A stretch of DNA of 50,129 bases from positions 1-50,129 of the forward strand of contig JAYVXV010000108.1 in NCBI GenBank assembly GCA_043784905.1, in the 5' to 3' direction. Below are positions 1,575 to 46,920 of the stretch, in pieces. Below the pieces are notes generated by a model. The model saw only the letters and a program-made list of their open reading frames with translations, was not told the origin of the DNA and made no database searches. Position 1 is the first letter of the stretch; every line of letters starts with the position of its first letter. A program made the position numbers and the translations under genes. Source of the stretch: Holophagaceae bacterium. Lineage in GTDB: Bacteria > Acidobacteriota > Holophagae > Holophagales > Holophagaceae.

Positions 1575-1719
1575 TCGAAAAGATAAAAAGAACCTGGAAC
1601 CACAGATTCCGCAGATGATACAGGTTTGCATTCAAAAAAATCCAAATTCACCCCCCAAGATTCCTCGGCTTTGAATCTGCGTAAATCTGCGGAATCTGCG
1701 GTTTCTTTTGTCATTTTGA
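1575..1719. repeat. Word-arm palindromic intergenic element (words CCRCAGAT / ATCTGCGG)
   Basis: The left arm tcgaaaagataaaaagaacctggaaccacagattccgcagatgatacagg (1575-1623) is the imperfect reverse complement of the right arm gaatctgcgtaaatctgcggaatctgcggtttcttttgtcattttga (1673-1719). It lies between convergent stops at 1561 and 1733. Confidence 0.75.
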
Positions 1720-1732
1720 ACCCGATTTGGCA

Positions 1733-3814
1733 CTAGCTGATCGCCGGGCGCTTGGGCAGATCCAGACTGAACCTGCTGCCTTGGGCCAGAGGTTTGAAAA
1801 AGGCCTCGCCCCCATGGTCTTCGGCGGTCTTGCGAACGATGGCGAGGCCGAGCCCCGAACCCCTTTCTTTGGTGGAAAAGCTGGGTTCAAACAGATGGTC
1901 CCGATGAGCTTCTGCAACACCTGAGCCATCGTCTTCTACGAAAATGCGCACGTTTCCATTGCGCTCGGTCAGGCCCACTCGAATGGTTCCACGGCCCCCG
2001 GTCGCGGCCACCGCGTTGTCCACCAGATTGATGAGCGCGCCCTTCACCATGTCGCCATCCCAATGGACCGAAACCGCATGCTCCGGAATCTCCCAGGCCC
2101 AGCGGATATCGGGGTGCGTGGGCCCGTACAGCGCCTTGGCTTGACGCATCAGATCACATGCGTCCAGATCCGTGGGATGGGGCGCGGGCAGGCGGGCGAA
2201 TCGGCTGAAGGCATCCACGAGCCGCGTCAGGCTGGCGACTTCCGTAAGGATGGCTTCGGCGCCCTGCTGCACAATTTCTCCGTCCAGGCGATTTTCCTTC
2301 ACGCGCCGCAGGAGCCGCTGGGCCGTGAGTTGGATGGGGGTCAGGGGATTCTTTACCTCGTGAGCCATGCGCCGTGCGACCTCTTGCCAAGCGGCACGTT
2401 TTTCAGCCTGCGCCAACAGGGAGAGATCCTCCAGCACCGCCAGGGCGCCGCCGCCCACTGGCATCGTCGCGCCGCCCACCACCAGCGGCGCTACGATGGC
2501 ACGCACGAGACGACTCTCGCCTTCGCCGCCCAGGCGCATTTCCTCTTGCTGGATGCGACCGGTCCCACGGGCTAGCGTGAGGAGCTGCGGGAGCCGCCCT
2601 AGCCGGGGCTGTCTCTCCAACTCCGTCCATGCATCGTGATTCGGATCAAAGGATTCGAGGCCAAGCCATCTTCGCGCTGCTGGATTCACCAGGCGCAATT
2701 GCCCAGCGTTGTCCCAACTCAGGACGCCCACGGGCAAGGCTTCCAGCAGCTGTCCCAAATAGGCGCGCTGTTGATCCAACCGCGCGCTCTGCGCTTCGAT
2801 GGCGGCGCGATTGGCTTTCAAATCGGAGGTCATGCGATTAAAGGTGCGCGCCAAAAAAGCCAGTTCGTCCTCGCCTTCTTCAGGCAGCTGCACGTCGAGA
2901 TCCCCGGTGCCCACGCGCTGAGCGGCTTTGGCCAAGGCGCGGATGGGCTCCGAAAGGGTCCTGGCGATGGCGAGGCCGGTCCACACCGCCGCGAAAAGCG
3001 TAAGCACCGTGAGAAATAAAAAAGTGCTTTGCGGCAGTGTTTCGAGCACGCCACGGGTCTGACTCACCTGGATGGATTCCGCAGAGCGCTTCTCCAATCG
3101 CAGCATCCCATCGGCCACCACGCGGGGCACGAAGACGCCCGCCACCACGCGGTTTCCATTGCGATCCAGAGCCTTCATGAACCATTGGCCTTCCTCGGAT
3201 TCCAATGATGAAACGGTTGAATCAGGGCTTCCGGCCAACGCGATCAGCGGAGTCTTGAGGCTCTTGGTTATGGACGTTATTTCCCCCGACATTAGAAGGT
3301 CCAGGCCCTCGGTCTGTCGTAGACTTTCCAGCTCCGTCAAATCTGCGGTCCGCAGGTGAAGCACCGAAACTTCAAGTCTTGCACTCACCTGCGCATGAAA
3401 TGCTTTTGCAGTGGCTTGGCCATCTTCAATGATCTCCCGCGTTTCGGGTCGGAACCATCGGTCCAGGTTCTTGGTGATGGCGCTTTGGCCTACGAAGAAA
3501 AGAATCAGGCTTGGTACGAGCGTCACGCCGAAAAAGGCCAGCACCAGGCGCGTTCGCAACCGCGCGCCAAGAATCCCACGGCGGCGCTCGAAGTAGAGCT
3601 TGGCCAGGGACCGCGCCACGATAAACAGTAGGATGCCGATGGCAAGCACGTTTAGAAGGCCCAAGGAAACCAGCGCCCAGCGCGAAGGCGCGTCAATGCC
3701 CCCGCTCACCTTGTCGCTCAGCAGCTTGTAGGCCTTGAAGATCATCCACACCAACACCGCGAGGCCCGCCGCAGCGTAGAGCCGCGTCAGCTCGCGGTCG
3801 CGTTGGAGGGTCAC
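1733..3814 (-). CDS. Sensor histidine kinase, NtrY-like (TM-HAMP-PAS-HisKA-HATPase)
   Basis: 693-aa ORF with N-terminal TM segments, a HAMP-like linker (GDLDVQLPEEGEDELAFLARTFNRM) and the H-box MAHEVKNPLTPI. The C-terminal ATPase boxes are NLVDNAV and GSGLGLAIV. No response regulator gene is adjacent. Confidence 0.85.
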   Translation of the reverse strand: MTLQRDRELTRLYAAAGLAVLVWMIFKAYKLLSDKVSGGIDAPSRWALVSLGLLNVLAIGILLFIVARSLAKLYFERRRGILGARLRTRLVLAFFGVTLVPSLILFFVGQSAITKNLDRWFRPETREIIEDGQATAKAFHAQVSARLEVSVLHLRTADLTELESLRQTEGLDLLMSGEITSITKSLKTPLIALAGSPDSTVSSLESEEGQWFMKALDRNGNRVVAGVFVPRVVADGMLRLEKRSAESIQVSQTRGVLETLPQSTFLFLTVLTLFAAVWTGLAIARTLSEPIRALAKAAQRVGTGDLDVQLPEEGEDELAFLARTFNRMTSDLKANRAAIEAQSARLDQQRAYLGQLLEALPVGVLSWDNAGQLRLVNPAARRWLGLESFDPNHDAWTELERQPRLGRLPQLLTLARGTGRIQQEEMRLGGEGESRLVRAIVAPLVVGGATMPVGGGALAVLEDLSLLAQAEKRAAWQEVARRMAHEVKNPLTPIQLTAQRLLRRVKENRLDGEIVQQGAEAILTEVASLTRLVDAFSRFARLPAPHPTDLDACDLMRQAKALYGPTHPDIRWAWEIPEHAVSVHWDGDMVKGALINLVDNAVAATGGRGTIRVGLTERNGNVRIFVEDDGSGVAEAHRDHLFEPSFSTKERGSGLGLAIVRKTAEDHGGEAFFKPLAQGSRFSLDLPKRPAIS

Positions 3815-3885
3815 CGCGCGGCCCTGGTTTCGCCAGAAAATGGATCGAGGTGGGACATGATGCGAAGGCGATTCATGGAGTCAGC

Positions 3886-5002: not shown

Positions 5003-5064
5003 TGAGGTACGAGGCGTGAGGTATGAGGGGTGAGGAAGCATCATCCGAGAGTATCGCCTCATCC
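5003..5064. repeat. Word-arm element, weak copy (words GAGGTAYGAGG)
   Basis: The left arm tgaggtacgaggcgtgaggtatgaggggtgagg (5003-5035) nearly matches the reverse complement of the right arm of the 20543-20617 copy. Only a short complementary right arm, cgcctcatcc (5055-5064), is present. Confidence 0.45.
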
Positions 5065-5069
5065 TAACG

Positions 5070-5095
5070 AAAAGGCGGCCCAGGGCCGCCTTTTC
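5070..5095. terminator. Bidirectional intrinsic terminator downstream of rpmB
   Basis: The sequence aaaaggcggcc-cag-ggccgcctttt forms a 7-bp GC stem (5074-5080 / 5084-5090). An A-run and a T-run flank it, so a U-tract follows the hairpin on either strand. Confidence 0.65.
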
Positions 5096-6430: not shown

Positions 6431-8887
6431 TTGACCAAGCTCGTCATCGTCGAAAGCCCCTCGAAGGCCAAAACCATCACCAAGTACCTGGGCAAGGGCT
6501 ACACGGTGAAGGCCTCCGTGGGCCATATCCGGGATCTGCCTAAAAAGTTGGGCGTGGACATCGAAAACGGGTTTCAAGAAGAGTATGAAATCAGCCCCGC
6601 CAAAGCCAAGGTGGTGGCGGAGTTGCGAGCTGCGGCCAAAGGCGCTGATGAGCTCATTCTCGCGACCGACCCCGACCGCGAAGGGGAGGCCATTTCCTGG
6701 CATTTATTAGAGGCCATCAAACCGCCCAAATCCCTGCCCGTGTCGCGAGTTCTTTTCAACGAAATTACCCCTGCGGGTATCCAAAAAGCCATGGCCAATC
6801 CCACGGTCATCAATAAGAAGTTAGTGGACGCCCAAAGGGCCCGCCGGGTGCTGGATCGTTTGGTGGGCTACAAGGTCAGCCAGGTGCTCTGGGACAAAGT
6901 ACGGCGCGGGCTCTCCGCTGGCCGTGTGCAGAGTGTCGCGGCGCGGCTCATCGTGGATCGCGAGCGGGAAATCCTAGCTTTCAATCCGGTGGAATTTTGG
7001 GTACTCAAGGCGAAATTCGCCGCCAAGCTGCCGCCGCACTTTTGGATGCGATTGGTGAAGCTCAGCGGTCAGGCGCTTCAGCTTGGCAACAAGGAAACCA
7101 AACGCCGCGTGGAAAACGAAAAGCAGGCCCACAACCTGCGTGACCAGATCTTGAAAGCCCCGTGGAAAGTGACGGGACTTGAAACCAAAGAGAAAAAACG
7201 CAATCCAGCACCGCCGTTCACCACGGCGCGTTTGCAGCAGGAAGCCGCGCAGAAGCTCAAGATGAGCGTCAGCCGAACCATGCAGAACGCTCAAAAGCTC
7301 TACGAGGGCATGGATTTCGGCGAAGGTCCGATTGGTCTCATTACCTACATGAGAACGGACTCTCCGCGCCTTGCTCCCGAAGCCATTGAGGCCACCCGCG
7401 AGTTCATCGCCAAGAAATTCGGCAAAGAGTATTTGCCCGCCAAGGCCCGGATCTACAGTGGCAAAGCGGGCGCCCAGGACGCTCATGAGGCCATCCGACC
7501 CACGGACATGACCCGCACGCCGGAATCCCTGCGCACCCATTTAGAGCCCGATCATTTCAGGCTCTATGCGCTGATCTGGCGGCGCACCATGGCCTCTCAG
7601 ATGGAGGCCGCGCGCTTCGACGAAACCGTCGTTGCTGCCGCAACGGCATTGGACAATGGCGAAGAAGCCATGTTTGAAGCCAAGGGTGAGATCGAACGGT
7701 TTCCGGGTTGGTTGGCGGTCTACCGTGCGGACGCGACGGAACAAAAGGCCGAAGCCATCGCAGACGCCACGAAGACCGAGGGAGAAGAGGAAGAAGAAAA
7801 CATCGGCCTGCCCCCGTTGGAGCTGGGCGAAACCCTGAACCTCGAAACCCTTGAAACCGATCAGCAATTCACCAAACCCCCCGCTCGCTTTAACGAAGGC
7901 ACTTTGGTGAAAGAGTTGGAAGAGGATGGCATTGGCCGCCCCTCCACCTACGCCAGCATCATCTCCACGATTCAAGACCGTGACTACGTCAAAAAGCATG
8001 AAGGACGCTTTAAACCGACTGAACTGGGCATGGTGGTCACAGACCTACTTGTGCAGGGCTTTCCAGAGCTGATGGACCCTAAATATACCAGCGGTCTCGA
8101 AGCGAATCTGGATCGGGTGGAGGAGGGCGCCATTACCTTTCTGAAGGCCATGAAGGATTTTTATGGACCCTTTGAAACGGCACTGGCCAACGCGGGCAAA
8201 GACATGCAGAACCTCAAGGCCGGAGTGCCCTCCGGCGAGCGTTGTCCAAAGTGTTCAGCGCCGCTATTGAAGCGCATCGGAAAGAATGGGCTCTTCATCG
8301 GGTGTTCAAACTATTCCACCGAGGTGAAGTGCGACTACACCGCCGAAGTCGAGGCCATGGATGAACCCGAGGACGCGCCGGAATGTCCACTCTGCGGCTC
8401 CACACCCATGTCCCTCCGCAAAGGACAATGGGGGCCTTTTTGGGCCTGCACTAATTATCCAAAATGCAAAGGTATCCGTAAGGCTGACCCCAAAGGCATC
8501 CCCATTCCTGCGGACGTTCCCATTGGCGAGAAATGCCCCACCTGCGGCAAGGATTTCGTCAAGCGACATGGGCGTTACGGCGAATTCATCTGCTGCGTGG
8601 ACTATCCCACCTGCAAGACCGTGAAGAAGGAAATCCTGGGCATTCCTTGTCCTAAGGATGGTGGTGATCTGAGTCCCCGCAAGACTCGCTTCGGAAAGAT
8701 TTTCTATGGCTGTACCAACTATCCTAAATGTGACTTTACTGCCTGGGACAAACCTGTGGCTCGCACCTGCCCCAAATGCAAGAGTCCCTATATGACCGAA
8801 AAGCAACGCAAGCCCCGTGGCAAGGATCCCATCATGGTCCTGCTCTGCCCCAACCCAGCCTGCAAGTATGAAGAGCCCATGGGATGA
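6431..8887 (+). CDS. topA: DNA topoisomerase I
   Basis: TTG start with GGAG at 6421-6424. TOPRIM N-terminus KLVIVESPSKAKTITKYLG. 818 aa with a C-terminal series of zinc-ribbon repeats (CPKCSA..GCSNY, CPLCGS..CTNYPKC, CPTCGK..CVDYPTC, CPKCKS..CPNPAC). Confidence 0.95.
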   Translation: MTKLVIVESPSKAKTITKYLGKGYTVKASVGHIRDLPKKLGVDIENGFQEEYEISPAKAKVVAELRAAAKGADELILATDPDREGEAISWHLLEAIKPPKSLPVSRVLFNEITPAGIQKAMANPTVINKKLVDAQRARRVLDRLVGYKVSQVLWDKVRRGLSAGRVQSVAARLIVDREREILAFNPVEFWVLKAKFAAKLPPHFWMRLVKLSGQALQLGNKETKRRVENEKQAHNLRDQILKAPWKVTGLETKEKKRNPAPPFTTARLQQEAAQKLKMSVSRTMQNAQKLYEGMDFGEGPIGLITYMRTDSPRLAPEAIEATREFIAKKFGKEYLPAKARIYSGKAGAQDAHEAIRPTDMTRTPESLRTHLEPDHFRLYALIWRRTMASQMEAARFDETVVAAATALDNGEEAMFEAKGEIERFPGWLAVYRADATEQKAEAIADATKTEGEEEEENIGLPPLELGETLNLETLETDQQFTKPPARFNEGTLVKELEEDGIGRPSTYASIISTIQDRDYVKKHEGRFKPTELGMVVTDLLVQGFPELMDPKYTSGLEANLDRVEEGAITFLKAMKDFYGPFETALANAGKDMQNLKAGVPSGERCPKCSAPLLKRIGKNGLFIGCSNYSTEVKCDYTAEVEAMDEPEDAPECPLCGSTPMSLRKGQWGPFWACTNYPKCKGIRKADPKGIPIPADVPIGEKCPTCGKDFVKRHGRYGEFICCVDYPTCKTVKKEILGIPCPKDGGDLSPRKTRFGKIFYGCTNYPKCDFTAWDKPVARTCPKCKSPYMTEKQRKPRGKDPIMVLLCPNPACKYEEPMG

Positions 8888-11884: not shown

Positions 11885-13957
<2,073 letters not shown>

Positions 13958-14149
13958 GCTGGATTTCCGGTTGTGCTCAAAGAAAAGGTTTCGGGCATCA
14001 GACGTCAGGCCTCGTTGCTGTGGGTCGCTTCGCATATTTGCAGTACGGAATGCCCCATTCAAAACCAACAATGAAGCCCGAGACCTGAAGGCAGTTGAAA
14101 GGGGATGCAACCGCAAAATCCGAGTTAGCGACCCCGAATTTTCGTCCCC

Positions 14150-15860: not shown

Positions 15861-15868
15861 ATGGGCAA

Positions 15869-15907
15869 TTCAAAAAGATCAAAAGAAACCGCAGATGACG
15901 CAGACCC
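15869..15907. repeat. Word-arm element, one-armed or truncated copy
   Basis: The sequence ttcaaaaagatcaaaagaaaccgcagatgacgcagaccc matches the left termini at 1575 and 33366 (TTCAAAAAGATAAAA..CCRCAGAT). No clear right arm is present. Confidence 0.4.
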
Positions 15908-18402: not shown

Positions 18403-18430
18403 GAGACATCACAGAGGCACCGCAGAGACG
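18403..18430. repeat. Word-arm element fragment (words CACAGAG/CGCAGAG)
   Basis: The sequence gagacatcacagaggcaccgcagagacg lies immediately upstream of the tmk start. It has the same word type as 43775-43804. No partner arm was found. Confidence 0.3.
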
Positions 18431-20542: not shown

Positions 20543-20617
20543 GTGAGGTGGTGAGGGATGAGGTACGAGGAAGCACCATTGCGTGCTCGTACCTCATAAC
20601 TCACCCCTCGTACCTCA
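20543..20617. repeat. Word-arm palindromic element (words GAGGTACGAGG / CCTCGTACCTC)
   Basis: Left arm gtgaggtggtgagggatgaggtacgagg (20543-20570), 15-nt core, right arm ctcgtacctcataactcacccctcgtacctca (20586-20617). The right arm ends on the stop codon of the heptose kinase gene (20615-20617). Confidence 0.75.
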
Positions 20618-27152: not shown

Positions 27153-27305
27153 CAGAAAAGGAAACCGCGAATGGTGCCAATGACGCGAAAAATGACTAAA
27201 GCAATGCCTTGGGGCAATGTGTCGTGACCTTCTGTAACGAATTTTTTTCGCGATCATTTCTTATTCGCGAGCATTCGCGTCATTCGCGGTTGGCCTTCTT
27301 TTGAA
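27153..27305. repeat. Word-arm palindromic element (words CGCGAAT / ATTCGCG)
   Basis: The left arm cagaaaaggaaaccgcgaatggtgccaatgacgcgaaaaatgac (27153-27196) pairs with the right arm tttttttcgcgatcatttcttattcgcgagcattcgcgtcattcgcggttggccttcttttgaa (27242-27305). It lies in a divergent promoter gap. Confidence 0.7.
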
Positions 27306-31523: not shown

Positions 31524-31542
31524 GGTGGGCCTCCAAAAGGCG

Positions 31543-31808
31543 GTCAAAAAAGCGTATCTGGTCACAGAAGACGCAGAAGCTCGCAGAAGACTAAGGAATC
31601 ACAGGTTCAGCGCCACGTCCAGCAGGGGCCTTTGGATGCGGGCGCGGCCTTGGATCGCTTTTGGGGCGAATCCGATGGCCGCGCCCGCATCACCGCCGCT
31701 CGCGGCGGTCTCGCCCGCCTTCAGGCGAGCGGCCCCTGCGCGCTGTGGCCCGTTGCATTCTGCGGACTCCCTCTTGATTCTGTGCCTTCCGTGTCCAGTG
31801 ATTTTGGG
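31543..31808. repeat. Word-arm palindromic element (words CRCAGAAG / TTCTGYG) with GC-rich core hairpin
   Basis: The left arm gtcaaaaaagcgtatctggtcacagaagacgcagaagctcgcagaagac (31543-31591) pairs with the right arm gcattctgcggactccctcttgattctgtgccttccgtgtccagtgattttggg (31755-31808). In the core, gatgcgggcgcggcc (31635-31649) pairs perfectly with 31677-31691. Confidence 0.65.
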
Positions 31809-31882
31809 CTGGGGTTCATGGGTAATCAGGAAAGCTTAGCGCCGGATTCTCGCTATTCTTTCCGTTTGCCTTGGAGTCCTGC

Positions 31883-33193: not shown

Positions 33194-33244
33194 CTCAGCA
33201 TTTCAGATGGGCACAGCCGTGAGAAAATGCGTTCTATTTTTTTT

Positions 33245-33360
33245 AAAACTCACCACCAGGGCACAAAGGCGGCGCAGACCGGGTGCATGCGAGGTGATGC
33301 TCAACATCGCGGAATGCGCTCGTATTCATTCATGAGTTCTCGGTGTCTCGAGGTGATACC
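33245..33360. repeat. Word-arm element related to the termini of the 29289-29640 copy
   Basis: aaaactcaccaccagggcacaaagg (33245-) matches aaaactcaccaccaagacacgaag, the reverse complement of 29611-29634. gttctcggtgtctcgaggtga (33336-) matches gttctcggtgtcctctgtggtga, the reverse complement of 29298-29320. The core of about 65 nt is different. Confidence 0.5.
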
Positions 33361-33365
33361 AAGTC

Positions 33366-33699
33366 GCGTTCAAAAAGATAAAATGAATCCACAGATGAAC
33401 ACAGATTCACACAGATGCAATTTCGTGATCCCGTCCCGAAATTGCTTCGCGAGGCGCGTAGCGACTGCGGGTCAAAAACCCGCAAATTCAGGGGGTCCGG
33501 CGCGGATCACACCAGGGCGTGAGGCCGACGCCGGACCCCCTGAATTTCATCCGCGAAGCTGGCGTGTGACGGGTCTCAAATACCGCGCCATCAGTGGCGA
33601 TAGGGCGAGGTACTTTGCATCTGTGTAATCTGTGTAATCTGTGTAATCTGTGTAATCTGCGGAATCTGCGGAATCTGTGGTTCCTATTCTTTTGAACGC
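33366..33699 (+). repeat. Word-arm palindromic element, long form with conserved core (core 33435-33577)
   Basis: The left arm gcgttcaaaaagataaaatgaatccacagatgaacacagattcacacagatgc and a right arm (33617-33699) ending ggaatctgtggttcctattcttttgaacgc are inverted. The core holds a perfect 19-bp stem (33484-33502 / 33529-33547). Confidence 0.85.
33619..33680. repeat. Tandem 9-mer array (ATCTGTGTA x4, ATCTGCGGA x2, ATCTGTGG)
   Basis: Direct reading gives 6.9 head-to-tail copies with period 9. The array forms the right arm of the element above. Confidence 0.9.
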
Positions 33700-33833
33700 G
33701 AATCCGTATGAGTCCATTATTGGGAACGCAAAACCGTATCATCCCCCGCGGGGTTTTCTCATGCGGATGAACAGCGCAAAGGGCGAGATGAGCAGCGCGG
33801 CGGTCAAGACAATGAGCAATAATTTCCCGACCA

Positions 33834-36323: not shown

Positions 36324-36388
36324 GAAATCACTCCAGACCCAGTCTAATGAAAGGCACAAGACCGTGGGACTTGATGCTTAGGAGGCAT

Positions 36389-36489
36389 GAGTCTTGGGTC
36401 CCGAGTCCCGAGTCCTGAGTCCTGAGGTTCAATGAGGATGCGGCCAGAGGCGCCGCAAACCTGCCCAAGGACTCAGGACTCAGGACTCA
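36389..36489. repeat. Word-arm palindromic element (words GAGTCCY / GGACTCA, period 7)
   Basis: Left arm gagtcttgggtcccgagtcccgagtcctgagtcctgagg (36389-36427), 40-nt core, right arm aggactcaggactcaggactc (36468-36488). Confidence 0.75.
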
Positions 36490-36496
36490 ATAAAAC

Positions 36497-38107: not shown

Positions 38108-38119
38108 GGCGGCTGGCTC

Positions 38120-39123: not shown

Positions 39124-40341
39124 ATGGCCCAGCCCGCCGAAGCTCTGAAGCAGATTCTCCGAACTTGGCTCAAAGAGCGCCATCAGGGCCTGCTTGAGCA
39201 GGTGATGATGACGTGGGAAGAAGGCCTTGGCCGCCTGAATCCCGATGACGCCTTGGCAAGTGAATTATTGGCCGCCGTGCCCGTGCCAGAGCCGCTGCTG
39301 GCGCCAGCCCCGGCGGTTACTCCGATGGCCAACACCGATCGTGAGTTGGGATCGGCCTTGGACCTATTGGACGCGGCGCAGAGTCAGGCGGAAGTGCTTC
39401 ACAAGCTCCTTGATGGACTGCGCCCCTTCGCCGATCGCAGCGCGCTTTTCATTCTCAAACAGGGCATCGCGAATCTCTACGCCAGCCGTGGATTTGATGG
39501 GGATAGTGCCAAGCCCGGCACGCCGGTGGTGCCACCGTTGGAACTCGAAGCGCTCATCTCCGGCCAAGTCTCATCCATCCAACAAGCCGGTGAGGCCTAC
39601 CTGTCCTTGGTGCGACCCTTGTCGGGCCTGACCTCGGCCGATCTCCGCATCCATACCATCCGCCTAAAACGAAAAGCCGTGGCCTTGGTGCTGGCGGATA
39701 GCGGCCTACGGCGTGCCATGGAAAACCCAAACCACATCCGAGCCCTGGTTCGTGGTGCCGAGGCCGCCTTGGCCTACCTGGCGGGCCAGAAGGACGATGA
39801 GCGAACGGGTACGGGACCTATGAAATCCAGCGGGCCCATGCCCATGCCCATGCCTGCGCCCATGCCTCAAGTCCAACCGCCACCTTCGCCGCCAATCCCG
39901 CAGACCTCGGCTCCCCATTCGATGGCAACGGGGCCTGTGCCGGTGCCCCAGGGATTGCGGAGCCCCGCGCCGGCGCCCATGGTGCCCATGGCTCCCATGG
40001 CGCCAGTTTCGCTCCCATCCTATTCCGCGCCCACGCAACAGGTGCCCGAGCCCATCGAATCGGCCACCACCCTGGACCCCAAGATCCGCACCACCGCTGA
40101 ACGTCTGGCCCGGGTGCTGGTGGGAGATATTGAGTTGTATTTCCCACAAAAAGTCGCTCAAGGGCGTCAGCAGGGCAACTTGTATGGGCTCCTTCGAGAC
40201 GAATTGGAGCGCAGCCGAGCGACCTTCATTGACCGATTTGGTGAGCCCGTGGAAAAAGAACATAGAATTTTTATTCAGACGGTCCTATCCCAGCTTTGTG
40301 AAGGCATTCCCACCAAGCTCGGCTCCGCTCCCTGGGCTTGA
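39124..40341 (+). CDS. Hypothetical protein (N-terminal globular region, Pro/Met-rich linker, conserved C-terminal helical module)
   Basis: 405 aa. The linker is GPMPMPMPAPMPQVQPPPSPPIPQ...APAPMVPMAPMAP. The C-terminus is TAERLARVLVGDIELYFPQKVAQGRQQGNLYGLLRDELERSRATFIDRFG. No named family is recognised. Confidence 0.6.
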   Translation: MAQPAEALKQILRTWLKERHQGLLEQVMMTWEEGLGRLNPDDALASELLAAVPVPEPLLAPAPAVTPMANTDRELGSALDLLDAAQSQAEVLHKLLDGLRPFADRSALFILKQGIANLYASRGFDGDSAKPGTPVVPPLELEALISGQVSSIQQAGEAYLSLVRPLSGLTSADLRIHTIRLKRKAVALVLADSGLRRAMENPNHIRALVRGAEAALAYLAGQKDDERTGTGPMKSSGPMPMPMPAPMPQVQPPPSPPIPQTSAPHSMATGPVPVPQGLRSPAPAPMVPMAPMAPVSLPSYSAPTQQVPEPIESATTLDPKIRTTAERLARVLVGDIELYFPQKVAQGRQQGNLYGLLRDELERSRATFIDRFGEPVEKEHRIFIQTVLSQLCEGIPTKLGSAPWA

Positions 40342-40411
40342 TTTGATCTACTGGGGTGACAATCGGATTGGAATCTGGTAAACCCTCTAGCCTGACGCTT
40401 GAGGGTTTCGC

Positions 40412-40705
40412 ATGGCCAATTTGGGAAAAAAATTTAACTGCTTTTCTTGCTCGACGAAGTTCTATGACTTCGGAAAGCCAGAGGCCCTATGCCCCAAGTG
40501 CGGCGCGAACCAAAAGGACGCGCCCAGCAAACCCAAAATCGTGAAGAAAGAAAAGGCTGTTCATCTCATCGAGGATGATATTGGAACCGAGCCCGAGGCC
40601 GAGGCCGCCACGGAGGAAACCTTCGAGGAAAGCCTGGGCATCAGTGGCGCCAAAGCCGAAGGCGTGGACCCCGGCGACCTGCGAATGGACGATTACGACG
40701 AGTGA
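40412..40705 (+). CDS. TIGR02300 (FYDLN_acid) family zinc-ribbon protein
   Basis: Starts LGKKFNCFSCSTKFYDFGKPEALCPKCGANQ, followed by an acidic tail ending DLRMDDYDE. Confidence 0.8.
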   Translation: MANLGKKFNCFSCSTKFYDFGKPEALCPKCGANQKDAPSKPKIVKKEKAVHLIEDDIGTEPEAEAATEETFEESLGISGAKAEGVDPGDLRMDDYDE

Positions 40706-41664
40706 CTTCCGCTCTCACGGCTTCCGTCAGCCCTCCAGCCATTGATCGCCATGTTCATCTTGAAGGTGGAATGGATCCGGCATGGGTGCGGAGTCAAGCT
40801 GGGCGGATCGGCCAAGTTGTGCCTGAGTCCCTAGAAGCGCTGTGGCTGCGTGAGGCAAGGCCCTTTGAAGATTTCATCGAGGCCTTTCTGTTTGGCTCGA
40901 AATTCCTTTGTGATCACAAGGCTGTGCGCGCCGCGATGGGCGCCATCATGGCGCGCTTGCCAGAATCATCTGATGGACCACGGGGCCTAGACCTATGGGT
41001 ATCGCCGTTTTTTCTGGTGTGCTTCAAAAACCTGCTTAGCCTTGAAGCGCTGTGGCGCGGGATCGAGGATGGCATCGGGGATGGGCGCCAGCAGGGCGTT
41101 TCCGTGGCCGTGGTGATAGACGCTGTGAATCATTTGGGCCCTGAGCATGGTCACGAGGTGCTCGATTTGGTACTGGGTGATTTGCCAAATTTCGTTGTGG
41201 GTTTTTCCACCGGGGGCCTCGAACGTGTGCCTTTCCGGGAATGGGCACCCGTCTTTGATCGAGCGCGGGAATCTGGACTGCGCATCGCGGCCCATGCGGG
41301 CGAGAATGGCCCTGGCGAAAATGTCCGCGAAGCCATCCTCGAAGGCGGTGTGGATCGCATCGTCCATGGCGTTCACGCCGCTTCAGACCCGAGCATCCTC
41401 GATCTTTTGGCGGAGCGGCGGATCCCGGTGGATGTTTGCCCTAGTTCCAACCGGGCCCTTGTGCCCAATTTGGGGACGCACCCCTTGCCAGTCATGCTCC
41501 GGGCTGGCCTCCGCTGCGCCCTGGGCACGGATGATCCGGGCCTCATCCCTTGCGATCTCACCTCCGAATGGCGATTGGCTCAGGCCATGGGGTTGAATGC
41601 GGGAGAGTTGGAGGCCTTGAGGCGATTCTCAGTGGAAGACGCATGGTGCTTGAGGAAGCCTTGA
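40702..41664 (+). CDS. add: Adenosine/adenine deaminase family protein
   Basis: Metal and catalytic motifs IDRHVHLEGG, AHAGE, DRIVHGVH and LGTDDPG. GTG start overlapping the upstream stop (GTGA). Confidence 0.8.
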   Translation: MTSALTASVSPPAIDRHVHLEGGMDPAWVRSQAGRIGQVVPESLEALWLREARPFEDFIEAFLFGSKFLCDHKAVRAAMGAIMARLPESSDGPRGLDLWVSPFFLVCFKNLLSLEALWRGIEDGIGDGRQQGVSVAVVIDAVNHLGPEHGHEVLDLVLGDLPNFVVGFSTGGLERVPFREWAPVFDRARESGLRIAAHAGENGPGENVREAILEGGVDRIVHGVHAASDPSILDLLAERRIPVDVCPSSNRALVPNLGTHPLPVMLRAGLRCALGTDDPGLIPCDLTSEWRLAQAMGLNAGELEALRRFSVEDAWCLRKP

Positions 41665-41726
41665 GTCCCGGGTCTCGAGTCCTAGGTCCCAAGCAAGGAA
41701 GGCCATAGGCTTTCGGCTCAGGGCTC
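41663..41726. repeat. Word-arm element, weak copy (words GAGTCCY)
   Basis: The left arm gagtcccgggtctcgagtcctaggtccc begins within the add stop codon. Only a short partner, ggctcagggctc (41715-41726), is present. Confidence 0.4.
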
Positions 41727-41811
41727 TTGTTTGTGCCGACCCTCAACCGATCCCGGCCAAAAGGAAGGCTCGATTGATCGGCACTTTCCTGGCAGAATCG
41801 AAGGTTCTGTG

Positions 41812-41888
41812 GCGCTCGTAGCTCAGCTGGATAGAGCATCAGGCTTCGAACCTGAGGGTCGGGAGTTCGAATCTCTCCGGGCGCACCA
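41812..41888 (+). tRNA. tRNA-Arg (anticodon TCG)
   Basis: Hand-folded cloverleaf. Acceptor GCGCTCG/CGGGCGC, D arm GCTC-AGCTGGATA-GAGC, anticodon arm TCAGG-CTTCGAA-CCTGA, T arm GGGAG-TTCGAAT-CTCTC. Discriminator A and an encoded CCA. Confidence 0.9.
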
Positions 41889-41911
41889 TGAAACATTTTT
41901 GAAAGACATAG

Positions 41912-41996
41912 GCGAGTGTGGCGGAACTGGCAGACGCACTGGATTTAGGTTCCAGCGGTTAACACCGTGTGGGTTCGAGTCCCACCATTCGCACCA
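41912..41996 (+). tRNA. tRNA-Leu (anticodon TAG)
   Basis: Hand-folded. Acceptor GCGAGTG/CATTCGC, anticodon arm CTGGA-TTTAGGT-TCCAG, long variable arm CGGTTAACACCGT, T arm GTGGG-TTCGAGT-CCCAC. CCA is encoded. Confidence 0.9.
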
Positions 41997-42049
41997 ATAA
42001 ATTCACGCAACACCCCAACCAAGTTTCGCAACCGGTTTTAGGAGCACCC

Positions 42050-43681
42050 ATGCAGGTCACGCTCACCCATCACACCAACACACGCAAGTCCCTGGAGATC
42101 CACGTCCCGGCGGCGGAGGTCACCTCGACGTTTGGTGAAGCCCTGGCCCGCATCGCCCCCAAGGTCAAGATTCCGGGATTTCGTCCGGGTAAGGTGCCCA
42201 AGAACGTTCTCCTCTCCCGCTTTTCCCGCGAGATCCGCCAGGACGTAGCCGACATGCTGGTTCAGCGCCTTTTCTGGGACGCTGCGGCAGCCGCAGGCAC
42301 TCAGCCCATCTCTCAGCCAGCCCTCGAAAAGGCAGATCTGTCGGATGGTCAAGATGGCTCCATCAAGGCCCTCTACGATGTGGCCCCCGAAGTCCAACTG
42401 CCGGAATTCAAGGGCTTCAAGCTGGAAAAGAAAAAGCGCGCCATTGATGACGCAGCCGTGGAAGAACACATCGAAGGCCTGCGTCAGGAATCGGCTAAGC
42501 TGCTGCCGGATGATGGCGTCAGCGCAGAAGGACTTTTCGCCACCTTCGACGTCAAGGCCAAGCCCCAGGGCCTCAAGGCCCAGACGTACCGCGATCAGGT
42601 AATCCAGCTCGATCCCAAGCGTCCTTTTGACAAGGAAGTGCTGGGTCTCAAAGTGGACGAAAAACGAAGCTTCGAGGTGGCCGTGCCCGTCGAGGATCCC
42701 AACAAGACGGTCGCCGGGAAAAGTGTTCACTACGAAGTGATCCTCAAGGATCTGCGCAAGAACACCGTGCCTGAGCTGAACGATGAATTCGCCAAAGACT
42801 CGGGTGATTTTGCGGACCTCAAGGCCCTACGCGCCCATGTCCGCAAGGAACTGGAAGAGGCGGCCGAGCGCGATGCTCACGCCCGCTTGCAGAGCAACAT
42901 GTTGGAAACGCTGTTAGATGCCTCGCCCTTTGAAGTTCCGGTCTCCATGGTGTCCTTGCAGCTAGACGATTACAGCCAAGAATTCGCCAACATGATCGCG
43001 CGTCAGGGTGTGGATCCAAGGCGCGTGAATTGGAACGCCTACCGACAGAGCCGCCACCGGGATGCCGAGCGCGCGGTGCGCAGTGGATATCTTTTGCAGG
43101 CCATCGGTAACGCCGAGGATATCCAGGTCGCCGATGAAGAAATAGACGCGGACATCCGCACCTTCATGGAAGAGAACAAGGTCCAGCAGCCCTTTGCGGC
43201 CTTCAAGGCCGACCTGGAAAGCCGTGGCGCTACCACCGAAATCAAAGGCCGTATTCGCACGGACAAAATCTTTGATCACCTGATCACTTTCGCTACTGTT
43301 ACCGAAGAGCTGCTCGACAAAAAGGCCTTCGAGGACTTGGTGGAACTGGAGCGCAAGCGCGAAGCCGGTTTGGCCTCGGCTCGCTTTGACGCCGGCGGTC
43401 TCGAAAGCGGCGAAACCGAGCAGGAGGGCGGCGCTCCGGATGCCATCCAACATGGCGAAGCCGATCACGTCCACGGTCCCGATTGTGACCACGACCACGA
43501 CCACGACCATGCCGAAGAAAAGCCGAAGAAAAAAGCGGCCAAAAAATCCGAAGAAATCGAAGAAGAGAAGCCTAAGAAAGTCGCTAAAAAAGCCGCTGAA
43601 GCCGAGGACGAAAAACCAAAGAAAGCCAAGAAGGAAGAGCCTGAAGACGAAAAGCCAAAAAAGAAGAAAAAATCCGAGTAA
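42050..43681 (+). CDS. tig: Trigger factor with about 110-aa acidic / His-Asp / Lys-rich C-terminal extension
   Basis: The ATG at 42050 has GGAG 5 nt upstream (the ORF track start at 41969 lies inside tRNA-Leu). N-terminal ribosome-binding motif GFRPGKVPKNVL. The tail is HVHGPDCDHDHDHDHAEEKPKKKAAKK...KPKKKKKSE. Confidence 0.9.
   Translation: MQVTLTHHTNTRKSLEIHVPAAEVTSTFGEALARIAPKVKIPGFRPGKVPKNVLLSRFSREIRQDVADMLVQRLFWDAAAAAGTQPISQPALEKADLSDGQDGSIKALYDVAPEVQLPEFKGFKLEKKKRAIDDAAVEEHIEGLRQESAKLLPDDGVSAEGLFATFDVKAKPQGLKAQTYRDQVIQLDPKRPFDKEVLGLKVDEKRSFEVAVPVEDPNKTVAGKSVHYEVILKDLRKNTVPELNDEFAKDSGDFADLKALRAHVRKELEEAAERDAHARLQSNMLETLLDASPFEVPVSMVSLQLDDYSQEFANMIARQGVDPRRVNWNAYRQSRHRDAERAVRSGYLLQAIGNAEDIQVADEEIDADIRTFMEENKVQQPFAAFKADLESRGATTEIKGRIRTDKIFDHLITFATVTEELLDKKAFEDLVELERKREAGLASARFDAGGLESGETEQEGGAPDAIQHGEADHVHGPDCDHDHDHDHAEEKPKKKAAKKSEEIEEEKPKKVAKKAAEAEDEKPKKAKKEEPEDEKPKKKKKSE
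43487..43510 (+). repeat. Hexanucleotide microsatellite (GACCAC)3 GACCAT inside tig
   Basis: Direct reading. It encodes DHDHDHDH in the tig C-terminal extension. Confidence 0.9.
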
Positions 43682-43697
43682 CTCGGGTCTCGGTAAC

Positions 43698-43728
43698 AAA
43701 AAAGGGCGCTGTGGGCGCCCTTTTTTTC
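43698..43728 (+). terminator. Intrinsic terminator of tig
   Basis: The sequence aaaaaa-gggcgc-tgtgg-gcgccc-ttttttt has its stem at 43704-43709 / 43715-43720 and a 7-T tract. Confidence 0.75.
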
Positions 43729-43729
43729 T

Positions 43730-43943
43730 GGCCTCGGGCATCAGGCTTCATACGACTTTGCTTTCAATGAATTAGAACCACAGAGACACAGAGGGCACAG
43801 AGAGAGCCGTCATGTGCCTCTGTGGTGAATTTAATCTATTGAACGCGAATGGGTATCAGTCATCGTTGTTGGTTTTGGATGGGCCATCTGGCACGCCAGA
43901 TATGCGAAGCGACCGACATCAACGAAGCCTGATGCCCGAGGCC
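43730..43943. repeat. Nested palindrome: perfect 20-bp inverted repeat enclosing a short word-arm element
   Basis: ggcctcgggcatcaggcttc (43730-43749) and its exact reverse complement gaagcctgatgcccgaggcc (43924-43943) flank the element. Inside it, gaaccacagagacacagagggcacagagag (43775-43804) pairs with tgcctctgtggtgaatttaatctattgaacgcgaat (43815-43850). Confidence 0.8.
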
Positions 43944-43951
43944 TGAGTCCC

Positions 43952-44350
43952 TTACCTCAGATCTTCCTCACGCACCACCACACCATCCTGAAGAATTCGA
44001 TATCCAAGGGGCCGATCATGGGTGGGCACGACGGCCTCGAAAATGGAGTGGGCCGCTGTCATTCCGGGCTGACCGGGCATCGCCGCCTGTTCGGTGGTGG
44101 CCTTGCAGGGGACTTTGAGTACCCTTCCTTCCTTGAACAGAAATTCCATGGAGAAATGGATCACTTCCTCCTTCTGCCAGATGTATGGGTCGGAGTCGGT
44201 GAAGCGCATCAAGGTGCGGGCCTGCTCGCCATACTCTTCTCGGCGGAGCCGGACGCTTTTCCCAGTGCCCGTGATGGGGATGGGATGTTTGCATGCGACA
44301 CCGAGGCCCGTGAAAAGGCAGATAAAAAGAAGGGCAGTCTTGGGTTTCAT
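43952..44350 (-). CDS. Hypothetical lipoprotein
   Basis: Signal peptide plus lipobox [20 protein letters not shown]. 132 aa from the ATG at 44348-44350. No family is recognised. Confidence 0.55.
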
Positions 44351-44458
44351 GGGGGCTCGCAAGTTTTAGATGTCCATTCCAGTATGCACCTAGGCTGGAG
44401 AAGGCCGCTTGAAATGGGCTCTGCGCTATTCTGTCTTCATCAGGATTCAGGAGCCTTC

Positions 44459-45055
44459 ATGCCCAGCAACTACTACCCCCCTATCGTCATCGAGCAGACC
44501 CCTCGGGGCGAACGAAGCTACGACATCTACTCCCGGCTTCTGAAAGACAACATCATCTTTCTGGGCACCGCCATTGACGACAACTTAGCCAATGCCATCG
44601 TGGCGCAGATGTTGTTTCTGGAAAGTGAAGATCCCGACAAGGACATCCAGATCTACATCAACAGCCCCGGTGGCAGCGTCACGGCGGGCCTCGCCATCTA
44701 CGACACCATGCAATTCGTGAAGAACGACATCGTCACCTATTGCATCGGTCAATGCGCGTCCATGGGGGCTCACTTGCTGGCGGCGGGCACCAAGGGCAAG
44801 CGCTTCGCGCTGCCCAATGCCCGCATCATGATCCACCAGCCCAGCGGCGGCGCCCAGGGCCAGGCCACGGAAATCGAGATCACCTACAAAGAGATCCAGC
44901 GGCTCAAGGACGCCCTGAGCGAAACCTTCGCCAAGCACACCGGCCAGACCGTGAAAAAGGTGCAGAAGGACATGGACCGCGATTACTTCATGAGCGCCGC
45001 CGAGGCCATGGACTACGGCATCATTGACAAGGTGCTGACGGAGCGGCCGGCCTAG
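44459..45055 (+). CDS. clpP: ATP-dependent Clp protease proteolytic subunit
   Basis: The ATG at 44459 has AGGAG upstream. 198 aa with [16 protein letters not shown], the Ser box GQCASMGA, and IMIHQP. Confidence 0.95.
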
Positions 45056-46717
45056 TTGGACTTACGCACTGAACTCGCCGCGTTGGCCCTATTGCCGCTT
45101 GCCGAGCGACAGATTCGGCTGGGTGAGTTGCGGGCCCTGTACCGATTAGAGCCGCACCATTTCACGCCAGATATTCTGCGGGAACTGAAAGCTCTTGCCA
45201 CGCCGGATCTCAGCTCACAACTCAAATCGATTTTTGGATTCGATCATTTCCGTCCGGGCCAAGAAGACATCATCCACGCGGTGATGGCCGGGCGGGACGT
45301 GCTGGCGATCATGCCGACGGGGGCTGGGAAATCGCTCACATTTCAGCTTCCGGCGCGGCTGCTGGGCGGCGTCACGCTGGTCATTTCGCCGCTCATCGCG
45401 TTGATGAAAGATCAGGTGGACGCCATGACCGAGGCGGGCCTGAAAGCGACATTCCTGAATTCGAGCCTCGACGCAGAAGAGCGCAGTAAGCGTATCCGCG
45501 CGATCCGTGATGGCCACATCGAGTTGCTCTACGCGGCGCCGGAAGGCCTGGAACTCTACGTGGCGAGCTTGCTGGAGAACCTTGATCTGAAGCTGGTCGC
45601 TGTGGATGAAGCTCACTGCATCAGTCAGTGGGGGCACGATTTCAGACCTGCCTACCGCAATCTCGCTGGCCTGAAAAACCGCTTTCGCAATGTTCCGATC
45701 CTGGCCCTCACCGCCACCGCCACCAAGGACGTTTGTGAGGACATCGTCGCGCAGCTCGCCATGAAAAACGCCGCACGATTTCACGGTTCATTTTTCCGTT
45801 CCAACCTGCATCTTTCGGCCATCAAAAAAGGTGAAGGCCCCTCGGTGCGGGAAGGCATCCTGCGCCTCATACAGGCGCGCCGTGGGCAGAGCGGCATCGT
45901 GTATTGCCTCTCACGCAAAGGTGTGGAATCCACCGCCGAATACCTTGCGGATCATGGCGTAAAAGCCAGGGCCTATCACGCAGGCATGAGCAGCGATGCT
46001 CGCAGCGCGGCGCAAGAGGCTTTCCGCCGGGACGATGTGGATGTCATCGTTGCCACGGTGGCTTTCGGAATGGGTATAGACAAACCGAATATCCGTTTTG
46101 TCATCCACCGCGACATGCCGAAAAGTATTGAAGGTTATTACCAGGAGATCGGCCGTGCGGGCCGCGATGGCGAACCTTCGGACTGCATCCTGTTCTATTC
46201 CTGGGCGGATGTGCTCAGCCTTGACCGGTTCACCGACGATGTGGCCTCGGAACTGGCGCGAGAGCAGCAAAGGCAGACGCGAGCCATGTTTCGCCTGGCC
46301 GATGAATCCGGGTGCCGCCATCAGAGGATCCTTGCTCATTTCGGTGAGCGTATGTCTGCGTGTGGGGCGAGCTGTGACGCCTGCGGCGGGTGGAATGTCA
46401 TGGCCACCGCGCCGAAATCCATTCGTCTTCCCAAGTCCAAAAAGATCCGTCCTGAATCTATTGAACTATCGGAAGAGTCAGCGCCCATGGGCGAAGACGA
46501 GACCCTGTTCATGGAACTCAAAATACTTCGCAAGCGCATTGCCGATGAAAAAGGTCTGCCAGCTTACTTGGTTTTCGGAGATACCGCGCTCAAACAAATG
46601 GCCCAATTCAGACCTACCACCGAAGCAGAATTTCTTGCCATCAGTGGCGTGGGACCCAAAAAGCTAATGCAGCATGGCCAGGCATTTTTGGCGCTGCTGC
46701 GACGAATGGCGGATTGA
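45056..46717 (+). CDS. recQ: ATP-dependent DNA helicase RecQ
   Basis: FGFDHFRPGQEDII, Walker A MPTGAGKS, DEAH box VAVDEAHCISQWGHDFRP, RecQ-Ct zinc Cys cluster, and a C-terminal HRDC (LPAYLVFGDTALKQMA). The start is uncertain (TTG directly after the clpP stop). Confidence 0.9.
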   Translation: MDLRTELAALALLPLAERQIRLGELRALYRLEPHHFTPDILRELKALATPDLSSQLKSIFGFDHFRPGQEDIIHAVMAGRDVLAIMPTGAGKSLTFQLPARLLGGVTLVISPLIALMKDQVDAMTEAGLKATFLNSSLDAEERSKRIRAIRDGHIELLYAAPEGLELYVASLLENLDLKLVAVDEAHCISQWGHDFRPAYRNLAGLKNRFRNVPILALTATATKDVCEDIVAQLAMKNAARFHGSFFRSNLHLSAIKKGEGPSVREGILRLIQARRGQSGIVYCLSRKGVESTAEYLADHGVKARAYHAGMSSDARSAAQEAFRRDDVDVIVATVAFGMGIDKPNIRFVIHRDMPKSIEGYYQEIGRAGRDGEPSDCILFYSWADVLSLDRFTDDVASELAREQQRQTRAMFRLADESGCRHQRILAHFGERMSACGASCDACGGWNVMATAPKSIRLPKSKKIRPESIELSEESAPMGEDETLFMELKILRKRIADEKGLPAYLVFGDTALKQMAQFRPTTEAEFLAISGVGPKKLMQHGQAFLALLRRMAD

Positions 46718-46733
46718 TGGCCCGTCTCGCTCT

Positions 46734-46920
46734 CAAGATAAAGATCACCACCACGGCACGAAGGGCACCAAGAAAACACGAAGCTCCATCACCCATGCTT
46801 CCGGCCCGAAATCGCTTCGCGAGGCGCCTGCGGGCCACCTGAATTTCATCCGCGAAGCTAGCACGTGACGACTTCCTTCGTGGCCTTGGTGTCCTTCGAG
46901 TCTTCGTGGTGAGTTTTTAT
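46734..46920 (+). repeat. Word-arm palindromic element, short form of the conserved core (core 46805-46870)
   Basis: The left arm ..atcaccaccacggcacgaagggcaccaagaaaacacgaagctccatcaccc is over 85% identical to the reverse complement of 29582-29634. The right arm is ccttcgtggccttggtgtccttcgagtcttcgtggtgagtttttat. Confidence 0.85.

Follow-up and report, generated by a model that had tools for sequence, protein, structure and literature searches.

What are the long palindromes, their two arms built from short tandem words, that recur between the genes of an ordinary bacterial chromosome? The question is raised by contig JAYVXV010000108.1, a stretch of 50,129 nt that we refer to throughout as the window and that encodes topA, murA, tig, clpP, recQ, holB and tmk. 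Its MurA protein is 92% identical to proteins from metagenomes and 74–79% identical to those of Holophagaceae bacterium, Geothrix sp. and Holophaga sp., and by these protein identities the host is placed in the Holophagaceae (Acidobacteriota). An earlier note on this DNA had described a dense family of such word-arm palindromes between positions 1575 and 46920, and had likened them both to bidirectional terminators and to a mobile family. The observation is real but was overstated. The elements are best read, with a probability of roughly 0.6, as a non-autonomous, foldback-like superfamily of MITEs (miniature transposable elements with inverted repeats) carried by part of the Holophagaceae.

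Elements with seven different words (CACAGAT, CGCAGAT, CACAGAG, CACGAAG, CACCAAG, CGCCAAG and CGCGAAT) possess one and the same terminal inverted repeat (TIR) of ~40 nt, which reads CCAAGTYGCRTTCAAAAAGATAAAA directly inside a flanking TA. Alignment of 15 element ends from the window and its relatives yields the consensus tgATACCnaGTyGCrTTCAAAAAGATAAAAnnnA-CCRC, which the first word directly adjoins; the 'A-rich lead-in' and 'T-rich tail' pointed out by the earlier note are therefore parts of this repeat. A profile built from the alignment recovers inverted pairs of termini in the elements starting at 1559, 33354, 43748 and 46734 (Table 1), as well as solo termini at 15867–95 and, within the first element, at 1616–1652. 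A second type of end, CCCGGATTTTGCRATTG, is found in the GGCTTCAGG class, which is represented by window positions 13955–14138 and by L019 and L021 (names of this form denote loci from relatives or metagenome contigs that were compared with the window). Among the aligned ends, 9 of 11 in the A/T-terminus class and all four in the GGCTTCAGG class have the dinucleotide TA directly outside them, or 13 of 15 ends in total. The terminus profile has no match in ~130 kb from eight other Holophagaceae loci, and the distribution of the family within the Holophagaceae appears to be patchy.

Three of the window copies share a structured core of 145 nt, present at 33432–33576 (+), at 29365–29576 (−) and, as a deletion derivative, at 46802–46875 (+). 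Copies of this core at non-orthologous loci are 79–90% identical; besides the window they come from two metagenome-assembled genomes (MAGs) of Holophagaceae, JADKJH01 and JANOLT01, from a MAG of the Acidobacteria and from a pair of metagenome contigs, and at least four Holophagaceae assemblies other than the window's carry them. Given a MurA identity of 74–92% between genomes, such conservation is far above what is expected for neutral intergenic DNA. The core folds into a three-way junction that is closed by a stem of 8 bp and bears, next to two short hairpins, a third one longer than 22 bp. Both sides have changed in four of its pairs, one pair in the long hairpin occurs as C-G, U-A and G-C, and the modelled strand has a slight excess of G-U pairs (9 cells vs 4 C-A cells). 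In L015 the apical loop is inverted, which indicates recombination between the arms.

The core was searched by a 20-mer motif in one genome per species, and separately in metagenomes. The genome scan returned 24 loci, of which 7 are real copies, all of them from two Holophagaceae MAGs and one Acidobacteria MAG, and the remaining loci were rejected as chance matches within genes; the metagenome scan gave a single real copy, L030, and the murA-linked contig L035 adds another core. A covariance model of the core, run over 228 kb of sequence from the Holophagaceae, added no clear copy to these. The centre of the element at 31540–31845 had been a candidate homologue and was discarded, the model having matched it merely as a generic GC hairpin. 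The core motif has no match in IMG/VR, and the best element has none by BLAST against phages and plasmids. Rfam at its gathering score recognises two tRNAs only in the whole window, and at E ≤ 1 returns for 29200–33800 nothing but a spurious miRNA-precursor match to one hairpin. The literature searched contained no description of repeats of this kind from the Holophagaceae, Geothrix or the Acidobacteria. The earlier statement that this is not a named family thus holds for Rfam, phages, plasmids and the literature searched; the superfamily is abundant, uncatalogued and without a name.

Comparison with relatives reveals insertion polymorphism. In the closest relative compared, L025 (MurA 92%), the genes for ETF-QO, PTPS, rhodanese, MauE, S26 peptidase, M61 peptidase and MurA follow one another as in the window; there the S26 and M61 genes overlap where the window has a 352-bp element (29285), the M61/murA gap measures 70 bp vs 358 bp in the window, and the ETF-QO/PTPS gap 87 bp vs 192 bp. 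The latter gap is 55–149 bp long and element-free in L025, L028, L036, L037 and L038. The 31540 element is absent from L025, L026, L033, L034 and L035, and the 20543 element from L028 and L038, in both of which a mere 3–4 bp separate the stop codons. Four window elements are missing in this way from syntenic gaps of relatives whose MurA is 77–92% identical, and the orthologous gaps of six relatives are without the window's elements. The relatives have elements of their own in comparable positions, built from different words: GAGTCGA/GAGTTGA arms directly after the murA stop in L026, CTCGGCGTAC and TCTCCGCG arms in L028, and CCTCGGNNN arms in Geothrix L036. Copies in unrelated contexts occur in at least five other assemblies. 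Nesting is equally evident, as L024 carries a CACCAAG/core element inside a CACAGAT element, and a CGCCAAG element of L019 has a GGCTTCAGG element directly next to it, in a place where the orthologous L030 has no GGCTTCAGG element. The common terminus, the absence from orthologous gaps and the nested copies bear out the dispersed, MITE- or REP-like character that the earlier note had proposed. Downstream of murA, at 8057–8290, L025 also carries two copies of a ~130-nt GC-rich repeat (CCCCCTGACCACCCC..CGATCGC..GTCCACCGGACTGTGCTCCCGCTCCTCGCTTCGCTCGGTCGCGG), after which come two tRNA-like genes; the same niche is thus taken by different repeat families in related genomes.

Within the window the copies follow one layout: an A/T-rich outer segment, 2–7 tandem words of 7–10 nt, a centre of 10–250 nt, the words in reverse complement and a complementary outer segment, with a total size of 75–360 bp. 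They are non-coding, the sole open reading frame (ORF) across elements (33227–33628) having a G+C content at third codon positions (GC3) of 0.52 and no Pfam hit. There are ~16 copies in the 50-kb window, and their summed length of ~2.5 kb corresponds to ~5% of the entire window and to roughly half of the sequence in intergenic gaps measuring 60 bp or more. On a gene map of ORFs refined with Pfam there are 28 such gaps; full copies occupy 10 of them, weak or one-armed copies five, and 13 hold none, so that the claim of a copy in nearly every gap over 60 bp went too far. Convergent gaps are preferred (8 of 9 occupied vs 7 of 19 others, p = 0.016), more clearly so for full copies alone (7 of 9 vs 3 of 19, p = 0.003); eight of the 15 copy-bearing gaps are convergent, close to the half that had been estimated before.

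All full copies listed by the earlier note, nine by our count, are present where it had placed them, as are its five weak or one-armed copies and the contacts with stop codons at 20615, 29637 and 41662. An inverted-repeat search recovers arms, and Tandem Repeats Finder (TRF) word arrays, at the positions given in Table 1. Two of the full copies are weaker than had been thought: the right arm of 33245–33360 is poor, and the arms of 29289–29640 differ in word, its fold stemming mostly from the core. Two others, 13955–14138 and the outer element 43727–43946, had been overlooked.

Folding was assessed by RNAfold against dinucleotide-preserving shuffles for gaps of at least 40 bp (n = 28 on the first ORF map) and for length-matched coding controls. 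The gaps reach a mean z-score (z) of −2.65 vs −0.17 for the coding controls (Mann-Whitney p = 2e-4), so that intergenic folding is well above both shuffled and coding controls. Eight gaps have z ≤ −5.5 (1562–1732, 20476–20614, 29285–29636, 31566–31882, 33194–33833, 36360–36496, 43682–44017 and 46718–47002), and individual elements range from −3.1 to −7.0, the decayed 13955–14138 being the exception. Left arms pair best with their own right arm or with an arm of the same word class, at a summed score reached in none of 10,000 permutations.

Whether it is pairing rather than sequence that is conserved, as the earlier note had concluded, has a divided answer. Homologous elements do differ in the words of both arms: the window element 33354–33711 and L035 have termini and core in common but are built from CACAGAT and CGCCAAG words, respectively, on both sides. 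All 23 superfamily heptamers are joined in one network of single substitutions, a complete linkage that did not arise in any of 5000 random sets of the same size. On the other hand, the same words recur across genomes, with three assemblies for AACCGCGAATGACGCGAAT, two for CACAGATGAACAC and several for CACCAAGACACGAAG, and the word classes are therefore inherited subfamilies and not free compensatory variation. Some arms, furthermore, are chimeric or unmatched (29285–29640, L005 and L014) or unequal in word number (3 vs 7 in 33354–33711). As far as can be read from the sequences, the arms co-evolve over longer times, pairing and sequence being conserved on different time scales.

The same word in both arms would be the product of common descent within a word subfamily together with replication slippage and arm-to-arm correction, and slippage of the arrays combined with such correction would keep the arms alike while the words drift stepwise. 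Correction could take the form of template switching or gene conversion in the quasi-palindrome; both processes are well known, the former from quasi-palindromes and the latter from the arms of palindromes. With homologous termini and cores and words that are replaced stepwise, the family offers a tractable case of the co-evolution of palindrome arms. A lone array of a 12-nt unit, CTTGGGTGTTGT x6.5, lies at 5200–5277 of L015, its inverted partner being absent within 450 nt.

We propose that the plan of these elements comprises a TIR, subterminal mirrored arrays of 2–7 words (7–10 nt) and a variable centre, which in one lineage would be the conserved 145-nt three-way-junction core, and that a transposase encoded elsewhere in the genome would move them in trans. 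The TA outside most ends suggests a cut-and-paste enzyme of the IS630/Tc1/Correia-like kind; TA-flanked ends are typical of IS630/Tc1/mariner and Correia elements as well. Copies would persist where insertion is least harmful, namely in convergent gaps, beside existing terminators and within each other, and a preference for convergent gaps is the usual pattern of tolerated insertions. Once transcribed, stems with A and T tracts would serve as transcription barriers or 3'-end stabilisers. Such an effect is plausible for single copies as a secondary property, possibly exapted at some sites.

Several observations weigh against this proposal. The Pfam/ORF map of the window contains no transposase gene, and a transposase with matching ends was obtained neither from the window nor from the candidate in L036 described below. 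TA is missing at one L019-vs-L030 junction and at the shortened 27153 element; the relatives (MurA ≤92%) are too diverged for base-by-base junctions, and the TA could equally belong to the element. Core copies within a genome are as diverged (82–88%) as those between genomes, nothing points to recent activity, and a host function could instead account for the strong conservation of the core. The enrichment at 3' ends is also compatible with a terminator role. Variant words are mirrored between the arms in 46734–46944, whereas the GGCTTCAGG copies in L019 and L021 show no such mirroring, and arm-to-arm correction is therefore not uniform.

The L036 candidate comes from Geothrix sp. 21YS21S-2 (CP132910.1, L036 1–805), in which an apparently truncated IS630-family transposase gene (250 aa) ends 23 bp before a complete CCTCGG-class element with a centre that has a homologue in an element of L028. 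Insertion next to such elements, or targeting of them, may lie behind this adjacency. As a parent of the family this insertion sequence was rejected, since a homologue search gave five full copies with ends of their own (TA followed by GTGTAGTGC...) and without word arrays.

The main mechanistic alternative, to which we attach a rather low probability, is a hairpin-dependent Y1 mechanism. The elements would then resemble REPINs and move as single-stranded DNA hairpins under a Y1 HUH transposase (RAYT or TIRYT), not a DDE enzyme, and the hairpin substrate would select for matched arms. Arms that remain matched while their words drift, and the covariation in the long hairpin of the core, would both sit well with such a substrate, as would the fact that a target-site duplication is not demonstrable. 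Genes for RAYT-like TIRYT enzymes have been described whose flanking TIRs constitute repeat families, those of the Acidobacteria being a distinct group among them (Di Nocera et al. 2013, PMC3733652). The ends argue otherwise: they begin TACCAAGT... or CCCGGATTTT..., read TACC... and are without the terminal GTAG/CGTC tag by which REPs and REPINs are defined, the sole GTAG residing inside a small hairpin of the core. Moreover, elements of 75–360 bp with long TIRs and tandem-word arms contrast with REPs of 20–40 nt, the TA that flanks 13 of the 15 ends points to a Tc1/IS630-type DDE enzyme, and no Y1 transposase gene, the associated enzyme of REPs, was seen in the window.

A bolder idea, and likewise an improbable one, is that these are prokaryotic foldback transposons in the true sense. 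A single-stranded snap-back hairpin would propagate or repair the element, one arm being regenerated from the other, and the three-way-junction core, as DNA or RNA, would be the cis-acting part recognised by the enzyme. If true, this would account for arbitrary words that remain complementary as they drift through the network of single substitutions, for loops and cores that flip and for half-elements, and the enzyme could be a Y1/TIRYT transposase or one of the reverse-transcriptase type.

Less likely still is that the elements are immobile bidirectional terminators or stabilisers of mRNA 3' ends, selected by the host and grown in place by hairpin slippage. Several observations fit it. In the A/T-terminus class an A-rich lead-in, a long stem and a T-rich tail are read in both directions; the outermost words with their T tract are flagged as terminator-like at 1687–1701, 33670–33684 and 15911–15889; eight of the nine convergent gaps are occupied, and the gaps 1562–1732 and 29285–29636 are without any other terminator. 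The A...T polarity of one superfamily is compatible with the terminator reading of the earlier note, but several points speak against termination as the primary function. Shared termini of 40 nt and a core of 145 nt at unrelated loci and in different genomes cannot arise independently in place, and in the element-free orthologous convergent gaps of relatives neighbouring genes adjoin directly or overlap. Divergent start codons flank three of the copies at 10–40 nt, where an efficient terminator would block expression. The L028 and L036 classes have the reversed polarity, T-rich...A-rich, a T tail is missing from the GAGTCCY and GAGGTACGAGG copies, and the stems enclose 40–250 nt, unlike those of intrinsic terminators. 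Four copies adjoin canonical terminators: bidirectional ones consisting of an A tract, a GC-rich stem of 6–12 bp and a T tract are found at 5069–5095, 14150–14179, 43697–43728 and 46955–46993, each beside a word-arm element, and the organism therefore uses ordinary terminators. Simple terminator and promoter scans of the window gave no enrichment over shuffles and therefore speak neither for nor against this reading.

It is very unlikely that a DNA-binding protein, for instance an IHF/HU-type nucleoid protein or a regulator, binds the word arrays and thereby organises or regulates the chromosome. At least 12 unrelated words share one architecture within one bacterial family and would need as many binding specificities; their periods range from 7 to 12 nt, and orthologous positions are not conserved. 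The idea draws on the constancy of words in arms of different counts (3 vs 7 in 33356–33709), on the persistence of one-armed arrays and on the presence of an HU gene in the window (14194–14493), as well as on similar paired arrays of 7–9 nt that have been read as global-regulator sites (Aklujkar et al. 2009, PMC2700814), an interpretation that is itself a proposal only. Most doubtful of all is a structured non-coding RNA gene or retron-like msr/msd unit in the core, merely packaged by the word arms: the three-way junction, the four covarying pairs, the G-U excess on the modelled strand and the 79–90% core identity across genomes would suit it, but the core has no Rfam match even at E ≤ 1, occurs in both orientations relative to neighbouring genes, is lacking from most word-arm elements, persists as deletion (46802–46875) and insertion (29365–29576) derivatives, and is accompanied by no evident reverse transcriptase or promoter (a sigma-70 consensus scan gave 0 sites in 27100–47050).

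Table 1. Word-arm elements of the window, with their arms, termini, folding scores and genomic positions.
Coordinates	Strand	Element	Arms, termini and scores	Position and remarks
1559..1734	.	Full; CACAGAT/CGCAGAT words	Inverted-repeat arms 1598-1616/1685-1703, 95% complementary; terminus profile hits 1559-1604(+)/1695-1734(-); z=-5.25	Occupies entire convergent gap, M16 peptidase gene (+) to histidine kinase gene (-); foreign solo terminus inside at 1616-1652
5003..5064	.	Weak; GAGGTAYGAGG words, right arm decayed	TRF 14-nt unit x2.4; left arm matches right arm of 20543-20617 (score 21)	Adjoins canonical terminator 5069-5095
13955..14138	.	Decayed; GGCNTCA words	Inverted ends, TA then GGCTGGATTTCCGGTTG ... 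CAACCGCAAAATCCGAGT then TA; fold not significant, z=0.29	Ends homologous to GGCTTCAGG elements of L019, L021; followed by canonical terminator 14150-14179
15867..15907	+	Solo left end; terminus and two CGCAGAT words	Profile hit 15867-15895	
18403..18430	.	One-armed remnant; CACAGAG/CGCAGAG words		Divergent tmk/zinc-ribbon gap
20543..20617	.	Short full element; GAGGTACGAGG class	Inverted-repeat arms 20550-75/20580-605, 85% complementary; z=-7.0	Between two convergent stop codons; pfkB stop inside its last word
27153..27305	.	Full; CGCGAAT class, shortened termini	Inverted-repeat arms 27163-82/27272-91, 85% complementary; z=-3.1	Divergent ETF-QO/PTPS promoter gap; starts 10 nt from ETF-QO start codon
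29285..29640	-	Core-bearing; CACAGAG/CACCGAG words on one side, CACGAAG/CACCAAG on the other	Core 29365-29576 with apical-loop insertion; core model 109.7 bits; gap z=-6.6	Right terminus supplies TAA stop of M61 peptidase
31540..31845	.	CRCAGAAG class; GC-rich multi-hairpin centre	Perfect 15-bp hairpin 31635-49/31677-91; gap z=-5.5	Divergent M61/murA gap
33242..33353	.	Partial	Left terminus TTTAAAACTCACCACCAGGGCACAAAGG	Poor right arm abuts next element
33354..33711	+	Best-preserved; CACAGAT words, 3 left vs 7 right	Termini TA then CCAAGTCGCGTTCAAAAAGATAAAA ... TTTTGAACGCGAATCCG then TA; terminus hits 33354-33395/33674-33711, E=8e-8, 3e-6; inverted-repeat arms 33356-80/33685-709, 80%; TRF array ATCTGTGTA x6.8 at 33619-33679; core 33432-33576, core model 161 bits	
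35420..35474	.	One-armed remnant; CACGAA words		
36389..36489	.	Full; GAGTCCY heptamer class	21-nt inverted-repeat arms 36403-23/36468-88, 95% complementary, 17 nt perfect; z=-5.9	
41663..41726	.	Weak; GAGTCC class	Low arm self-score	First word overlaps adenosine deaminase stop
43727..43946	.	Outer element; GGCCTCG/GGCATCA/GGCTTCA words	Arms 43727-49/43924-46, 23 nt, 96% complementary	Contains nested CACAGAG-class element 43748-43858 (termini 43748-85/43818-58, hit 43818-43858 E=3e-5; inner fold z=-5.75)
46734..46944	+	CACGAAG/CACCAAG class	Deletion-derivative core 46802-46875, 35.8 bits; termini 46735-53/46902-44, hit 46902-46944 E=6e-5; gap z=-9.1	Between recQ stop and separate bidirectional terminator 46955-46993

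Outside this census, the sequence GAGGCTTCAGGCC ... GCCGAAGCCCGCATTCAGGC is found at 19905–19990, between the zinc-ribbon gene and the ORF that follows it, and may represent one more decayed GGCTTCA-class element. Unrelated to the word-arm elements is a second dispersed hairpin repeat of ~90 nt (GGCCGTTACGAAATAACCAG...CTGG.TA.TTGTTACGGCCCCTTATGCCGG), present in the window at 21833–21918 and 24140–24245 with 92% identity, in each case just upstream of a minus-strand gene (pfkB and that of a Rieske protein); L035 has three copies of it around murA, including 123–213 and 1660–1850. Two sets of tandem repeats are coding and likewise unrelated to the intergenic family, namely GCCCAT x5.5 and GGCGCCCAT x3.7 at 39834–40004, in an ORF without a Pfam hit, and GACCAC/GCCGAAGAAAA at 43487–43600, in the C-terminal tail of trigger factor. 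With respect to the gene map, the start of the tig ORF (41969) overlaps a tRNA-Leu, and the clpP ORF (44018) is overextended by ~150 codons across a minus-strand ORF (43952–44362) with a signal-peptide-like N-terminus.

If the elements are indeed mobile in the manner proposed, part of the Holophagaceae, which are common Acidobacteriota of sediment and soil, carries a very abundant and uncatalogued repeat superfamily. This has practical consequences, as word-arm repeats create false ORFs and gene starts and are likely to break metagenome assemblies. Four compared loci (L008, L019 at position 1, L021 and L030) have contig ends exactly at or within a word-arm element, and the repeats probably break short-read Holophagaceae assemblies. 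Miscalled starts lie inside elements for ETF-QO (27257) and the M61 peptidase (31565), and a 133-aa ORF (33227–33628) spans two elements. Copies can, furthermore, provide neighbouring genes with stop codons and candidate terminators.

Among known systems, the Correia elements of Neisseria are small and non-coding, have TIRs of 25–40 nt and TA at both ends and are without a transposase of their own; they are numerous, intergenic and co-transcribed with their neighbours, and their long hairpins can be terminators or RNase III sites. The window elements are like Correia elements in size, ends and genomic niche. Compared by description only, the two differ in that Correia elements represent one fairly uniform sequence without tandem words, whereas the window family combines many word classes with one terminus, unequal arms and frequent nesting. 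The Foldback (FB) elements of Drosophila possess long TIRs composed of short tandem subrepeats, arms whose length varies within and between copies, and variable centres; FB elements are eukaryotic, kilobase-sized and without sequence relationship to the window family, and the analogy is one of architecture only. The STRR sequences of cyanobacteria, like the window family, consist of heptamers repeated in tandem between genes, and a genome can have several types of word; unlike it, they form mostly single arrays and are not known to share termini. REP, BIME and REPIN sequences (RAYT) and TIRtrons are likewise extragenic inverted-doublet palindromes, clustered, nested, enriched at 3' ends and centred on hairpins (PMC3733652), and are set apart by the tag, size and transposase considered above.

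In Xanthomonas, GGGAATC heptamer arrays form 70–75 convergent opposite-strand pairs per genome (Rehm et al. 2015, PMC4692102). As in the window, these are tandem heptamers, often in inverted pairs, mostly intergenic and variable in length between relatives; the Xanthomonas arrays are transcribed (PMC4692102). They consist, however, of a single G-rich, quadruplex-forming word at sites mostly conserved between species, and shared termini or cores are not described for them. Geobacter metallireducens has three classes (1–3) of paired opposite-strand arrays, with 3–5 words of 7–9 nt in intergenic positions at variable spacing (PMC2700814). Their words are GTTGCTYN, TCTCCGTS[Y] and MTYCTGA, insertion sequences lie at fixed distances from them, and they were read as IHF/HU sites (PMC2700814). 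The Geobacter sites belong to another phylum and are described at the level of motifs, terminal repeats, cores, nesting and presence or absence not being reported; none of their words is matched by those of the window, and only the L028 word TCTCCGCG resembles class 2. Their architecture is nonetheless identical to that of the window elements. The paired tandem-word sites of Geobacter and the GGGAATC pairs of Xanthomonas, neither of which had been interpreted as mobile elements, are the closest described analogues, and, if the family described here is truly one of MITEs, its elements would link the paired tandem-word motifs of both genera to an explanation by mobile elements.

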